From IMG/VR virus record IMGVR_UViG_3300027733_000047: a DNA stretch of 11,502 bases; one strand, 5' to 3'. Shown here one piece after another: positions 38 through 10,797 of this stretch. This DNA comes from a virus. Lineage: Duplodnaviria; Heunggongvirae; Uroviricota; Caudoviricetes. Numbering within the stretch: position 1 is the first letter of the stretch; every line of letters starts with the position of its first letter. The notes below the pieces were generated by a model. That model did not search any database. It was not told the origin of the DNA and saw only the letters and a list, made by a program, of their open reading frames with translations. Position numbers and translations under genes: made by a program.

Positions 38-454
38 TCACACCTCCCCAATAAATTCATGGCTAAAACAAATTCTCCTATTGTCAAAGTAATGTTCTTT
101 ATACATGTTTTTTATGGAAACATCTTTTCTAAGTTTTTTATTTTTACTTGTTGCAACCCACAATGGCGAATTTTCTCGATAATACCCCATCTTAGGGTGC
201 GCGGTTCTTGAAAAGAATCTAAGACCTTGTTCCACGTGGATTTCACCTATTCCATTAGAAAATCTAACACCCATACCCATACCTTGATAATCTGGGAGAA
301 TAACCGTCCTATGACTACGCCATGCATCCTTTAGTGTACCACTCGGCATTGCAATACTAGCACAAAACGCAACAATCTCATCTTCCCATACACCTAAATA
401 ACACCTAGCTGCTTTATTTATGTTACCATCTAAATAATGATAGTCTTTAAACAT
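38..454 (-). CDS. GNAT-fold acetyltransferase-like domain, probably the C-terminal half of a frameshift fusion with the upstream ABC ATPase
   Basis: GNAT motif A-like segment RTVILPDYQGMGMG and an N-terminal HYL motif. The frame stays open upstream from 454 to the T9 tract at 509-517 (ARPKINLEIYRTSHNIWP-MFK). Confidence 0.8.
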   Translation of the reverse strand: MFKDYHYLDGNINKAARCYLGVWEDEIVAFCASIAMPSGTLKDAWRSHRTVILPDYQGMGMGVRFSNGIGEIHVEQGLRFFSRTAHPKMGYYRENSPLWVATSKNKKLRKDVSIKNMYKEHYFDNRRICFSHEFIGEV

Positions 455-1107
455 GGGCCAGATATTATGGCTTGTTCGATATATCTCGAGATTGATTTTT
501 GGGCGGGCAAAAAAAAACCCTGATGGAATTCACCAGTATCAGTATCTATAACCCAATCAGGTTCTAACCAATCTAGTATATCGCGGTGACATGTAGCTAA
601 AACAATATTGTTTATATCATTATTTTTAACATATTTACTCAAAGACACGCTAGCAGCTTTTGCTACATTCCTATCTACAACGCTTGTAAACTCATCAATG
701 ACAGCATTTGACTTTAATTTTCTAGCTAAATCAGCTCTAAACTTTTCACCGTTTGATAATACATGATATGGTTTATACCAAGAAGGTATTGTATTTAACC
801 CAACGGCACCTAACTTGTTTATTGATTCATCTGGAGATTCAAAATGTGATACGATTGATTTTGTACCATCCCATTCTGGTGAATCTTCAACACCAAAGTT
901 TTTTAGTAATGTTGACTTACCAGAACCGCTGGAACCAACAATTACACCAATCTTAAATTGTTTTGGAATGTTACTTGGAAGAATCCAAGGATAAAATTTA
1001 GATGTACCGTCAAATATACAATCAAATGCTCTTTCACTGGCTTTGATAAAATCATCTCTATCTACTGTAGAGATTAAAGGGGTTGAAGTTTTAATTAATT
1101 TTTCCAT
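430..1107 (-). CDS. Soluble ABC-family ATPase domain (N-terminal half of an ABC-GNAT fusion)
   Basis: Walker A GSSGSGKST, ABC signature LSNGE, Walker B AVIDEF and H-loop ATCH. No transmembrane segments. Confidence 0.9.
   Translation of the reverse strand: MEKLIKTSTPLISTVDRDDFIKASERAFDCIFDGTSKFYPWILPSNIPKQFKIGVIVGSSGSGKSTLLKNFGVEDSPEWDGTKSIVSHFESPDESINKLGAVGLNTIPSWYKPYHVLSNGEKFRADLARKLKSNAVIDEFTSVVDRNVAKAASVSLSKYVKNNDINNIVLATCHRDILDWLEPDWVIDTDTGEFHQGFFLPAQKSISRYIEQAIISGPCLKTIII
509..520 (-). other. Slippery site GGG-T9 (candidate -1 ribosomal frameshift or transcriptional slippage site)
   Basis: Minus strand reads CAG GGT TTT TTT TTG in the ATPase frame. This contains in-phase X_XXY_YYZ heptamers G_GGU_UUU and U_UUU_UUU, and a -1 shift enters the GNAT frame. 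Confidence 0.7.
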
Positions 1108-4394: not shown

Positions 4395-4733
4395 TTAATT
4401 TATAGGCACATTTTTGGTTAGCTGGTTGTTTTTAATATTACCAAACATCCAATCTTGAATTACTTGTTGGGTAAATGAATCACCCAATTTATATTTCTTT
4501 TTAAAATATTCAAATAACTCTTTAGGTGTTATCCCCTCGCCATCAACTTTAATTTTAATCATTGGTTCTTCCTTATATTCACCGTTCTCCCTCACCACAC
4601 CAAGCATAGGCTCATAATTCATATCTAAATCAGAAACCAATTCCGCAACCAATTTTTGGTGGGTATTGCTCTCATTGATATGATTTAGTATTTTTTTATA
4701 CTGATTTTCCGTTATAATTAATTTAACACTCAT
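4395..4733 (-). CDS. Hypothetical protein with a KLIITENQYKKI...INE leader
   Basis: Intact ORF with ATATTTAT (4746..4739) 5 nt before the ATG. Confidence 0.8.
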   Translation of the reverse strand: MSVKLIITENQYKKILNHINESNTHQKLVAELVSDLDMNYEPMLGVVRENGEYKEEPMIKIKVDGEGITPKELFEYFKKKYKLGDSFTQQVIQDWMFGNIKNNQLTKNVPIN

Positions 4734-5893: not shown

Positions 5894-6319
5894 TTAAATT
5901 TCTAGCGGTTTAATATTATTAAACTGAGCCGTTATATTGAAATCTTCTTGGTAATCTTGAATCTCTTCCAATTTGTCTAATATTAATGTAAGGTTTGTAG
6001 CTTTATCCGTAACAACATCTGCCATATCATATATTGCCGATTCTATTTCGCCATCATCGTCCTGTCCGTACATGCTCATGAACTGTTTTCTTGCTTTATA
6101 CATAAAATCCTCAATACTATACACAATCTTGCCAAGATTTTTTATGTTTATGTTCATAGATAAGATATCACCAACACTCTCAAATGTAATTTTTGAATAT
6201 ATTTTATCCAGTTCAGCAGATTTTTCATTACACAATTGCTTAAATTTGGCTAATTGGTCTTCGCTCTCCTTTATAAGCCTAATTTTATTATACTGATTTT
6301 CAGTTACTTTTATTTTCAT
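5894..6319 (-). CDS. Hypothetical acidic helical protein with a KIKVTENQYNKI...IKE leader
   Basis: Start moved to ATG 6319, downstream of ATATTTAT (6342..6335) and an A-rich spacer. Confidence 0.8.
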   Translation of the reverse strand: MKIKVTENQYNKIRLIKESEDQLAKFKQLCNEKSAELDKIYSKITFESVGDILSMNINIKNLGKIVYSIEDFMYKARKQFMSMYGQDDDGEIESAIYDMADVVTDKATNLTLILDKLEEIQDYQEDFNITAQFNNIKPLEI

Positions 6320-6875: not shown

Positions 6876-7423
6876 TCGTAGAACTAATACCTAAAACTTG
6901 CCAATACTCAAATGTCAGAACCACACTCAAAAAAAAAGAATGGGATAAAATACGATTAATCGTATACGAAAAAGCTGGACATAAATGTGAAATATGTCAC
7001 CAAACTGGTTTAGAACAAGGTTATCGACATAAATTAGAATGTCACGAAATCTGGAAATATAACGACACAAAAAAAATACAAAAACTTGTTGGTCTTATAG
7101 CACTATGCCCACTATGCCACCAAGTAAAACATATCGGAAGAACCTCATTCATTGGCAAACAAAAAATAGCGCTAGATAGACTATCCAATATAAACAAATG
7201 GAATCTAGAAGAAGTTACACAACACGTAGCTGAAGCCTATGAAAAAAATAAAGAAAGGTCCAATTTTGATTGGACCCTTGATATATCTTTATTGAAAAAA
7301 TCACCCTATAATATTGTTATCAATTCAACAGAAACTCGTAAATACGAAAAAGTTAAATACAAAAAACGTAAATATATAAAAAAGAAAACCGCTAAAAGAA
7401 AAAGACCAAAGAAAAAAAATTAG
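6845..7423 (+). CDS. HNH-family (beta-beta-alpha-metal) endonuclease-like protein with Zn-binding Cys pairs and a basic tail
   Basis: CEIC...LECHE...LIALCPLCHQVKH and a Lys/Arg-rich C-terminus. Overlaps the upstream gene by 31 nt. Confidence 0.8.
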   Translation: MAKKVQEPKLIVELIPKTCQYSNVRTTLKKKEWDKIRLIVYEKAGHKCEICHQTGLEQGYRHKLECHEIWKYNDTKKIQKLVGLIALCPLCHQVKHIGRTSFIGKQKIALDRLSNINKWNLEEVTQHVAEAYEKNKERSNFDWTLDISLLKKSPYNIVINSTETRKYEKVKYKKRKYIKKKTAKRKRPKKKN

Positions 7424-7650
7424 CCTTTATTGCTAGCAGGTATGCTCTTAAATAATATACCAAAAAGGGTATAAAGTGCAAACGATTCCCAATAGCTAAT
7501 TGCTGGCAATTGGAAAATATCTACAATAACCCAATTCCATAACCACATCACTGGAAAGGCCAACAATAACGCCGCGCCAAATAATCCAATGGTAACAAGC
7601 GCTAACGCACCTAAAAAAACTCCTAAATACTGTAATAAATTTCTTTTCAT
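7420..7650 (-). CDS. Integral membrane protein (76 aa, about two transmembrane segments)
   Basis: Long hydrophobic segments and the MWLWNW...IF.L..ISYWES..L pattern seen in phage membrane proteins. Start set at MKRN (7650) behind an A-rich leader. Confidence 0.75.
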   Translation of the reverse strand: MKRNLLQYLGVFLGALALVTIGLFGAALLLAFPVMWLWNWVIVDIFQLPAISYWESFALYTLFGILFKSIPASNKG

Positions 7651-7660
7651 TTTTTTAATT

Positions 7661-7834
7661 TTATTTTTTATCATTATTAATAATTGATTTATATCTAATA
7701 CTGTCTTCTTTTGTAAATTCCACAATTTTCCACACTTTTGGATTAAATGTAAAATTTATATTTTCTTTTTTAACTGTTGTCATTGATGGTTTACATGCTG
7801 TAAACAACAAAGCAATTAATAATAATTTTTTCAT
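7661..7834 (-). CDS. Small lipoprotein (signal peptidase II substrate)
   Basis: MKK-LLLIALLF-TA-C14: basic n-region, hydrophobic h-region and lipobox Cys. Start set at 7834. Confidence 0.7.
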   Translation of the reverse strand: MKKLLLIALLFTACKPSMTTVKKENINFTFNPKVWKIVEFTKEDSIRYKSIINNDKK

Positions 7835-7868
7835 AATTTTTTTTATAAATGTGTAAAGCAAAACCCTA

Positions 7869-8135
7869 CTAATATGTAAACTCGTATTCAGAATTACCAG
7901 TTTTAAACTTAACGTAGCCATCCCGCTCCTCCAATATCTCAGTAACTGTTGTTGTTAGCCAATAATCTTGACCCGAATAACTTCTAGCCGTTACAGCGCC
8001 AACCAATAAACTACACCCAATCGTTGGTCTGTTGCCAACAACCTCTTTAAATGTGCCATCTTCATTCCAAGATATTGCTTCAACCCTAGAACCAGAATCA
8101 CCAGCACCATCTCGTAAACGTTTTAAATTTGCCAT
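7869..8135 (-). CDS. Hypothetical beta-rich phage protein
   Basis: Intact ORF with the pattern PTIG...VG...ARSY..QDYWLTT.VTEI...FKTGNSEY and a host-type promoter upstream. Confidence 0.8.
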   Translation of the reverse strand: MANLKRLRDGAGDSGSRVEAISWNEDGTFKEVVGNRPTIGCSLLVGAVTARSYSGQDYWLTTTVTEILEERDGYVKFKTGNSEYEFTY

Positions 8136-8150
8136 GATATAATTTTTGTG

Positions 8151-8182
8151 TAAATATACGCACTTTCTTTATAAAATGCAAA
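8151..8182 (-). promoter_or_regulatory. Bacteroidota-type promoter (one mismatch)
   Basis: TTTG (8182..8179), 20 nt, then TATATTTA (8158..8151). Confidence 0.65.
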
Positions 8183-8189
8183 TATTTAT
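8182..8189 (+). promoter_or_regulatory. ATATTTAT putative late promoter for the 8200-10770 operon
   Basis: Exact motif copy, 10 nt before an in-frame GTG at 8200. Confidence 0.6.
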
Positions 8190-10077: not shown

Positions 10078-10770
10078 ATGAAAAAGAAACTATTAAAACA
10101 AAAAGAAAGGGCTATCATCGAAAGCTTTGCTAAGAATTTTAATAAAATTAAAAGACTTGACGAAAATGAAATTAGTGAAGAACCATTAAACGCCACCAAT
10201 CATTTACAGGTGGGCGATAGATTAGAAAAAATAAATACATCAACACCAGACACTTTAACTATTGTAAAAATAGATGGTAATAAACTTTTTATAAAATCAG
10301 ATGCGGCCAACCACGAATTTCAATGGACTCTAGATAGCGTCGATGATGAAATTAAAAGAGGTAAATTAAAATGGTTTCCAAAAAATGAATCACTAGATGA
10401 AATCAACCTTAAAAAAAGTTTGGCAACCCTAGGGTTAGCAGCAACCATGATGGGTGCACCTAAAGACGCTGCAGCTCAAATGCCACAACAACCACAAGGT
10501 ATAGAAAAATCGGTTGCTAGTGCTCAAGCTTTGGGCTTGCCAGAAGACAATCGCAAAGCGGGTAAAGTAGTTATTGATTCTTACACAAGAAATCCTTTTA
10601 CTGCCGATATGTGGAGCAAAAAAAGCCGTGAAAATCTAAGGTTTTTTAAAACACTTAAAAAACTTGTTGATTATTATATGGGCGGTGGACAAGTAGACGA
10701 TTCTGATATTGAAGAATTAGGCGCAATGGTAAAACAATCACCAGTTGCTATGGATTTCTTACAAAGATAA
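10078..10770 (+). CDS. Hypothetical modular protein: [IL]xE-rich leader, small beta-barrel-like module, internal signal-peptide-like segment, C-terminal domain
   Basis: 4-nt gap from the upstream gene. Contains IIE, LDE and ISE, then LQVGD...TIVKIDGNKLFIK, then LDE-INLKKSLATLGLAATMMGAPKDAAA-Q. Confidence 0.85.
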   Translation: MKKKLLKQKERAIIESFAKNFNKIKRLDENEISEEPLNATNHLQVGDRLEKINTSTPDTLTIVKIDGNKLFIKSDAANHEFQWTLDSVDDEIKRGKLKWFPKNESLDEINLKKSLATLGLAATMMGAPKDAAAQMPQQPQGIEKSVASAQALGLPEDNRKAGKVVIDSYTRNPFTADMWSKKSRENLRFFKTLKKLVDYYMGGGQVDDSDIEELGAMVKQSPVAMDFLQR

Positions 10771-10771
10771 T

Positions 10772-10797
10772 AAAAAAGGGGCCTAAAGCCCCTTTCT
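10772..10797. terminator. Bidirectional intrinsic terminator between convergent genes
   Basis: 8-bp stem AAAGGGGC/GCCCCTTT with loop CTAAA and A/T tracts on both sides. Confidence 0.85.

Follow-up and report, generated by a model that had tools for sequence, protein, structure and literature searches.

A predicted signal peptide buried behind a candidate prohead-protease site in a modular protein of an uncultured T4-like phage

We analyzed an 11,502-nucleotide stretch of DNA (hereafter, the window) from the IMG/VR virus record IMGVR_UViG_3300027733_000047 (Caudoviricetes; 168,871 bp, 32.5% G+C, 48% complete according to CheckV), and focused on an open reading frame (ORF) of 230 amino acids at 10078..10770 (+) that carries a segment resembling a bacterial signal peptide in its interior. 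The best explanation of this gene is that it encodes a putative modular pro-protein of a T4-like phage infecting Bacteroidota, in which the pieces would be joined by [L/I/V]-x-E motifs (xxE sites). We further propose that the protein is packaged into the phage head through its N-terminal leader, trimmed at the xxE sites, ejected into the next cell, exported by the Sec system of the host, and cut by signal peptidase I (SPase I) at A133↓Q134 (arrows mark proposed or known cleavage positions). We regard this whole chain as a tentative proposal somewhat short of an even chance, because we infer every step that follows translation.

Translation of the ORF gives residues L106 to Q134 as LDE, INLKK, SLATLGLAATMMGA-P, KDAAA, and Q, and this segment maps exactly to positions 10393-10479 of the window. 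After M1, the next Met is at residue 124 (M124), the preceding 340-amino-acid gene stops 4 nucleotides ahead of the start, and additional xxE sites occur upstream at IIE15, LDE29, and ISE34. A preliminary description, made from the letters of this DNA, had read residues 106-134 as an internal signal peptide directly behind an LDE site, with no Met in front and with IIE, LDE, and ISE upstream, and the translation bears out each of these points. The AlphaFold2 model, built with the family alignment, comprises a helix (residues 3-29), a five-stranded small barrel (residues 48-100; predicted local distance difference test score [pLDDT] about 70), an unstructured stretch (residues 103-151), and a confidently predicted helical domain (residues 158-229), in agreement with the layout sketched earlier of a leader, a barrel of about 70 residues, a hydrophobic segment, and a 97-residue tail. 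When folded alone, the C-terminal domain (C-domain) reached pLDDT >90 for domain residues 21-98. The barrel had weak Foldseek matches, the best being barrels of the KOW/Tudor/SH3 type. No match to the 230-amino-acid protein was found in Pfam and PHROGs searches, and the fold of the C-domain returned generic helical-bundle matches alone (PDB Foldseek of the whole model, AFDB clusters, BFVD, and the Atlas model). A VIA-align comparison of the C-domain with 48,161 PDB chains had a best Z of 4.7, and nothing stood out; the comparison with the T4 Spackle-like periplasmic protein yielded nothing prominent, although small helical bundles are poorly discriminated by such searches. The helical C-domain is novel, without a sequence or fold relative of known function in the searches made.

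All sequence hallmarks of a Sec/SPase I signal peptide of Bacteroidota are present in the internal segment. The counts given here and below for the family rest on about 47 metagenomic homologues and those for charge on 46. The n-region, INLKK, is basic, with 1-2 Lys or Arg residues at this place in nearly all homologues. The h-region comprises 14-16 uncharged residues, is weakly hydrophobic (mean Kyte-Doolittle value 1.1-1.6), and ends with Pro or Ser-Pro in nearly all homologues. A Pro is found at about -6, Ala at -1 (Ser once), and mostly Ala or Ser at -3, and all but one of the homologues have Gln at +1. SPase I substrates of Bacteroidota carry Gln at +1, which is termed the Q-rule (Bochtler et al. 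2018, PMC5837995; PMC10653852). The segment resembles such Q-rule signal peptides in its basic n-region, its h-region of 14-15 residues, the Pro ahead of the c-region, and the residues around the cleavage site (small at -3 and -1, Gln at +1). It differs from them in its h-region, which is much less hydrophobic than those of the phage's own N-terminal signal peptides, and in its internal position, with 108 residues preceding the unit where a Sec/SPase I signal peptide typically stands at the N-terminus.

A signal-peptide h-region has about 7-15 residues and is closed by a helix breaker, and the length by which it is told from a membrane anchor is established knowledge. Here, the run between the flanking Lys residues has 14-16 uncharged residues, the last of them Pro, and falls short of the about 18-20 residues or more of a signal-arrest-release (SAR) domain or signal anchor; its length and terminal Pro thus point to an h-region and not to a membrane anchor. 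A loose scan of the 385 ATG-started ORFs of the record for a basic residue followed by an uncharged hydrophobic run and small-x-A↓Q returned 3 matches, with the full layout present in the 230-amino-acid ORF only. The layout of this ORF is beyond chance. In the uncut forms, the 15 residues upstream of the h-region have a net charge of zero or below in 43 of 46 homologues, and after the proposed cut behind Glu, the n-region would carry +2 or +3 in 39 of 46, the free amino group included. The acidic flank would fit a masking of the signal until the cut is made, as far as charge is concerned, and a signal of the INLKK type could come to stand at an N-terminus only through the proposed protease cut at E108.

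A word-based search identified 36 proteins at E <= 0.01, with 31 of these carrying the signal-peptide unit together with the C-domain and 5 sharing the leader or an upstream module alone. An exhaustive search of 1.8 billion proteins with a C-domain profile gave 24 representative clusters. The modules of the family follow one another in the order of leader, optional insert, signal-peptide unit with C-domain, and optional C-terminal modules behind an 'RLEE' site. The insert is missing in minimal forms of 163 amino acids, at least 6 unrelated insert types were found in other homologues, and the barrel insert of the 230-amino-acid protein recurs as the terminal module of protein P0021. With 2-3 exceptions, the homologues have a Glu 4-5 residues ahead of the hydrophobic run. 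At the junction, E108 and I109 are nearly invariant and P3 is Leu, Ile, or Val in nearly all, P4 and P2 vary, and 25 residues nearly always separate the junction Glu from the A↓Q site. The h-region sequence varies by subgroup (GLATLGLAATMMGAP, TLVPAAAMAIGSMLPS, ILAPIAFAAGMAGAP, ALGTAALGAALAFGSP), with length and character constant, as expected of evolving signal peptides, and C-domain identity falls to 35-40% among homologues that keep the layout. The combination of an xxE site and a following signal peptide persists with either leader type and with many different modules upstream; the preliminary description had named its conservation in homologues as a check on its proposal, and it is conserved in nearly all. 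In the homologues, 25 to about 190 residues lie upstream of the unit, the minimal forms have 16-40, and even the shortest upstream segments, of 16-26 residues, end in xxE. No family member with a plain N-terminal signal peptide was found by the profile search of 1.8 billion representatives or by a search for shorter forms, and the search for shorter stand-alone proteins made of signal peptide and domain gave one 53-amino-acid fragment only. Since the phage uses plain signal peptides on other genes, the leader seems to be retained for a reason. Six leader-B members (P0042-P0047; leader B is described below) also have a conserved basic C-terminal tail, '...LEE↓xxNEAL+KFRKGK', behind an L-x-E site, which may be another detachable peptide.

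Two leaders of unrelated type were distinguished in the family. Leader A, of 30 residues, is about 90% conserved where C-domain identity falls to 35-40%. Over 18 codons in 19 DNA versions, we counted 148 synonymous versus 48 nonsynonymous changes, and up to 11 of the 18 codons differ with the peptide unchanged, a pattern that marks leader A as translated and under selection at the protein level. The more distant members have leader B, 'MKxQINEIKRMQQLAG...', with the same junction and signal-peptide unit. Leader A also occurs on P0021 and P0033-P0036, all of which are without the signal-peptide unit and C-domain; P0033 is a precise deletion variant lacking both. A motif scan of IMG/VR returned at least 19 distinct leader-A and at least 65 distinct leader-B proteins, mostly unrelated to one another, and dozens of proteins with the same leaders have no hydrophobic segment at all. 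One syntenic contig has a tandem pair of leader-A genes at the locus. These distributions identify the leaders as portable tags. The leader-A proteins further share a conserved linker, 'EDYEKxxREVEYGINPYEE', between modules.

The record is a fragment of an uncultured T4-like jumbo phage, and contigs of about 320 kb preserve synteny at the locus. It encodes a prohead protease of the T4 gp21 family (Peptidase_S77, 79.8 bits) and a capsid protein of the gp23 family, the propeptide of which contains LLTE↓S at the place equivalent to the LTE↓A site of the T4 capsid protein. Prohead proteases of the T4 type cut C-terminal to Glu (PMC5694885), and the junction of the 230-amino-acid family, with P1 fixed as Glu, P3 as Leu, Ile, or Val, and P4 and P2 variable, matches such Glu-specific enzymes. 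The closest capsid protein of a cultured phage is that of Flavobacterium phage vB_FspM_immuto (42% identity over the aligned 39% of the query). The ordinary signal peptides of the phage consist of 'MKK' and a strongly hydrophobic run, with Gln at +1 in 3 of 4, and the phage also encodes lipoproteins. By the relation to vB_FspM_immuto, these Gln(+1) signal peptides, and the lipoproteins, a Bacteroidota host is well supported, and the Q-rule would thus be applicable.

To place the leaders relative to the head genes, we compared 5 near-complete T4-like genomes with leader B (G001-G005, 147-183 kb). Peptidase_S77 was identified in all 5; in G001, G003, and G004, the stretch from the protease to the scaffold gene contains leader-B genes, and across all five such genes lie between or near these two. 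The C-terminal sequence of the acidic scaffold protein is '...R(M/W)Q(K/M)LA(N/G)I...' in every one of the 5 genomes, which is the core motif of the widespread leader B ('INEIKRMQQLAGI'), and in G001 the Trp variant is found both in the scaffold tail and in the leader of the neighboring gene. Protein P0047 has leader B, the signal-peptide unit, and the C-domain fused to a further module, and this extra module shares 61% identity (E 2e-75) with a stand-alone leader-B gene located between protease and scaffold. Leader B of the cargo may mimic the capsid-binding tail of the scaffold. Peptidase_S77 was found in 1 of the 4 leader-A contigs, which are 24-39% complete, so this count is uninformative. 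By gene order and motif, the tie of leader B to the head-gene module appears clear, and the link of leader A appears weak.

We also identified internal lipobox-type signals behind the leader in 2 of 84 leader-motif proteins, which are unrelated to each other and are single sequences (Table 1). Downstream of an xxE site, both have a basic n-region, an h-region, and a lipobox Cys, and this suggests that the pairing of a leader with an internal export signal extends beyond one domain family. Other leader-bearing proteins of the genome and homologues had been pointed out in the preliminary description as a place where the arrangement might recur; the two lipobox proteins speak for it. Within its own 169-kb record the leader is unique, as no second copy of leader A was found there. 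A gene of G001 between protease and scaffold reads IDE↓AAGLALGLIAGAPGL... and has a Gly/Ala-rich hydrophobic segment without AxA↓Q. Further, the leader-A proteins L008, L011, L022, and L024 and L095:1995-2600 (-) contain long hydrophobic stretches rich in Gly and Ala that resemble glycine zippers, often directly behind xxE.

In the sequence of events that we propose, the protein would be made late, and its leader, acting like the capsid-targeting sequence of T4, would take it into the prohead core. Cuts by the gp21-type protease would follow E15, E29, or E34 as well as E108, and the unit of 122 residues that is retained would start at I109 with its positive signal peptide freed from the neutralizing acidic flank. 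The fragment would be ejected into a new cell and exported by the host Sec system, SPase I would cut A133↓Q134, Gln would cyclize, and the helical domain would be present in the periplasm ahead of any phage gene expression. The preliminary description had put forward the core of this mechanism, namely masking of the signal, unmasking by the prohead protease at E108, and export after injection; with the architecture, its conservation, the protease gene, the promoter-like motif ahead of the operon, the portability of the leaders, and the tie of leader B to the head genes in its favor, we grade it as plausible and partly supported. In a more general form, T4-like Bacteroidota phages would preload their capsids with proteins for the periplasm or outer membrane of the next host, with SPase I or lipobox signals that stay silent behind the leader and an acidic junction, are exposed by the protease, and are used by the Sec and lipoprotein machinery of the new host within moments of injection; we hold this wider version to be rather doubtful.

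Several observations weigh against the proposed chain. A common N-terminal tag need not be a capsid address, and leader A shows no more than a weak '(K/R)IK(R/D)L' resemblance to the C-terminus of its own scaffold protein. The best match in the record to the core of leader A, 'IESFAKNFNKIKR', is too weak to be relied on and is 'IDSFHKNDKIKR' (E = 0.008 among 385 ORFs), the C-terminus of a 52-amino-acid ORF that is followed downstream by a terminator and then by the ATATTTAT motif of the protease gene. The reading of ATATTTAT as a late promoter is a candidate assignment made from gene content alone. Leaders of 16-40 amino acids might permit direct export without any cut, and we found no precedent for Sec export of an injected virion protein. 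No homologue was detected in cultured phages by megablast and tblastn searches of 50,697 records with the locus, P0001, a leader-B homologue, and leader B alone.

The protein might instead never be packaged and be a late envelope protein, the internal Sec signal of which works in the producing cell, with SPase I releasing the helical domain to the periplasm, the leader and insert staying cytoplasmic or membrane-bound, and a role in, for example, lysis timing or superinfection control; the leader would then serve some other common purpose. The features of a signal peptide need no prior cut, the minimal forms carry just 16-40 upstream residues, and membrane and lipoprotein genes lie nearby (window 7420-7921). 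However, such an envelope protein leaves the invariant P3 and P1 right before the n-region and the acidic flank unexplained, and it has to account for the same leaders on dozens of proteins without a hydrophobic segment, for the leader B motif in the scaffold C-terminus and the location of leader B within the head module, and for the failure of homologue searches to find a member that is simply without a leader. In addition, folded modules of 70-130 amino acids ahead of a weak h-region are established to be poor Sec substrates, and we regard this explanation as unlikely. Packaging and cutting could also take place as proposed, with the exposed hydrophobic N-terminus inserting directly into the inner membrane during DNA entry, comparable to the hydrophobic segments of other phage ejection proteins and to the penetration peptides that proteases release in nonenveloped animal viruses, so that Sec would be uninvolved and SPase I cleavage incidental or absent. 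The Gly/Ala-rich hydrophobic segments that follow xxE without AxA↓Q in cargo with the same leaders (the IDE↓ gene of G001, L008, L022, and L024) would fit such insertion. The length of 25 residues, Pro at -6, Ala at -1, and Gln at +1 are nevertheless specific to Bacteroidota SPase I substrates (PMC5837995) and would be dispensable for a simple insertion peptide, and the two lipobox examples likewise point to the export machinery, which makes direct insertion fairly unlikely.

If the segment had no role in export and served a cytoplasmic or head-core protein as a conserved hydrophobic linker or oligomerization helix, it would resemble a signal peptide by coincidence. The weak hydrophobicity of the h-region (mean Kyte-Doolittle value about 1.2) and a small-xxx-small spacing could be read in this way; against it, length, helix breaker, and positions -3, -1, and +1 are jointly conserved even as h-region residues change and C-domain identity drops to 35-40%, the 169-kb record holds one full match to the layout, and the segment is unstructured and not packed in the model. 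We consider this improbable. A mis-annotated start, with translation beginning just ahead of the hydrophobic stretch, would make the gene product an ordinary secreted protein; the oddity of the layout favors this and nothing further does. The stretch between codon 1 and M124 lacks an ATG, the upstream stop codon lies 4 nucleotides before the start, the leader A peptide is maintained despite synonymous changes in up to 11 of 18 codons, and the frame is unbroken in all homologues, including those with inserts of 70-130 amino acids, so that a mis-annotated start is very improbable. An internal start, which the preliminary description had listed among the outcomes that would overturn it, was rejected, as the lack of a start codon near codon 109 and the synonymous bias of leader A remove it.

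The internal proteins IPI, IPII, and IPIII and Alt of T4 carry a capsid-targeting sequence that is removed by the prohead protease gp21 (PMC9958956, PMC5694885). Like them, the proteins described here combine a short N-terminal leader, common to unrelated and exchangeable cargo and with a hydrophobic-x-Glu end, with an encoded protease of the gp21 family; the gene occupies a variable locus away from the core head module, and late expression is presumed. Unlike in T4, the leaders have 16-40 amino acids, are unrelated to MKTYQEFIAE, and offer 2-3 candidate cut sites, and the cargo is composed of several modules with internal xxE junctions, one of which opens with a Sec-type signal peptide, as known from sequence alone. 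T-even phages have a conserved capsid-targeting sequence on varied internal-protein genes at a polymorphic locus, which is the nearest described parallel to leader A known to us, and this targeting sequence of the T4 internal proteins was reportedly described by Mullaney and Black in 1996. We know of no T4 internal protein with a Sec-type signal peptide. Capsid-targeted and protease-trimmed cargo of the T4 type is known, and a buried Sec signal within such cargo would be new.

Unmasking of a signal sequence by a viral protease has a counterpart in the alphavirus polyprotein, in which the signal sequence at the N-terminus of pE2/E3 becomes exposed once the capsid protease has cleaved itself off. 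As in alphaviruses, a cut by a viral protease within a polyprotein layout would create the N-terminus that activates the signal; unlike here, alphaviruses are eukaryotic viruses, and their cleavage is cotranslational and ribosome-bound, with no packaging or delivery before export. Ejection proteins, including T7 gp14-16, P22 gp7/gp16/gp20, those of N4, and the inner-body and ejection proteins of phiKZ and SPN3US (PMC8954989, PMC7411985), are likewise stored in the capsid, sometimes trimmed at Glu by the prohead protease, and expelled at infection to end in the envelope. In contrast to the export proposed here, they reach the envelope by self-assembly on leaving the tail. Signal peptidase was unmentioned in the top-ranked papers of a full-text literature search on ejection proteins and signal peptidase, and one full-text search returned no description matching a protease-unmasked signal peptide on phage cargo. 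Phage proteins known to be injected either work in the cytoplasm, as do T4 IPI and Alt and the N4 RNA polymerase, or form the entry channel. If the proposed chain is true, re-export by host secretion would be a third destination for virion-delivered proteins, which would act on the envelope at time zero, and the envelope could be altered before phage gene expression, for example by excluding other phages or blunting periplasmic defenses. It would then also be, to our knowledge, the first protease-unmasked signal peptide of a bacterial virus, a device with precedents in the polyproteins of animal viruses. Predictions exact to the residue can be given for the cut site, the SPase I site, and the expected pyroglutamate N-terminus. 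That leader B matches the motif at the scaffold C-terminus may offer a mechanistic handle on capsid targeting in a large group of uncultured T4-like phages.

Table 1. Coordinates of the modules of the 230-amino-acid ORF, of flanking elements in the window, and of ORFs used for comparison in related contigs and in the record
Feature	Position	Strand	Remarks
Leader A, residues 1-34	10078..10179	+	Predicted helix; conserved IIE15, LDE29, ISE34
Optional insert, residues 35-108	10180..10401	+	SH3/KOW-like small beta-barrel; ends with L106-D-E108
L106-D107-E108 (P3-P1; P1' = I109)	10393..10401	+	Candidate prohead-protease site
Signal-peptide-like unit, residues 109-133	10402..10476	+	n-region INLKK, h-region SLATLGLAATMMGA, P128, c-region to A-A-A133
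Putative mature domain, Q134-R230	10477..10767	+	Gln/Pro-rich linker and ~75-amino-acid helical bundle; SYxxNPFTADMW motif
ATATTTAT, candidate late promoter	8182..8189	+	Heads 3-gene operon: nucleotidyltransferase, 340-amino-acid protein, 230-amino-acid gene
Bidirectional terminator hairpin closing the operon	10775..10795	.	8-pair stem, 5 G-C pairs, T-runs on both strands
Internal lipobox signal	L011:7155-8036	+	'...NE↓GIKSNIIK-GVVCTILASGMVS↓C'
Internal lipobox signal	L062:3162-3554	-	'INE↓...KLLANK-GFLTAAMASAILAS↓C'
Head-module ORFs, G001-G005	L094:3310-4374, L095:726-1928		
Scaffold ORFs, G001-G005	L096:2757-3863, L097:4425-5504, L098:2796-3926		
52-amino-acid ORF ending 'IDSFHKNDKIKR'	G000:C1:124147-124305	-	Just upstream of prohead protease gene

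The ATATTTAT motif occurs in 12 copies in the window versus 3.6 expected, and in the genome it was found 5-40 nucleotides ahead of the protease, scaffold, terminase-like, sheath-like, and many other large genes. Between the copy at the head of the operon and position 10770, there is no further ATATTTAT and no plus-strand terminator, and the terminator hairpin starts 5 nucleotides past the stop codon of the 230-amino-acid gene. Two unrelated small proteins encoded behind ATATTTAT in the window, at 4395-4733 (-) and 5894-6319 (-), have a common N-terminus, 'K(L/I)x(I/V)TENQY(K/N)KI', and starts similar to 'ITE.Q' are also found on genes of 587 and 979 amino acids elsewhere in the genome. At 7420-7921 (-), a 76-amino-acid membrane protein with two spans is encoded beside a small ORF whose product carries the lipoprotein signal MKKLLLIALLFTA↓C; the membrane-protein gene is kept in the syntenic contigs, and these genes could have a lysis or envelope function. 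At the start of the window, the ORFs at 430-1107 (-), which is P-loop/ABC-like, and 38-454 (-) match positions 40-194 and 217-351, respectively, of the 357 positions of phrog_11143, and by these separate matches they represent the two halves of a single family, which are either split or connected through a frameshift.

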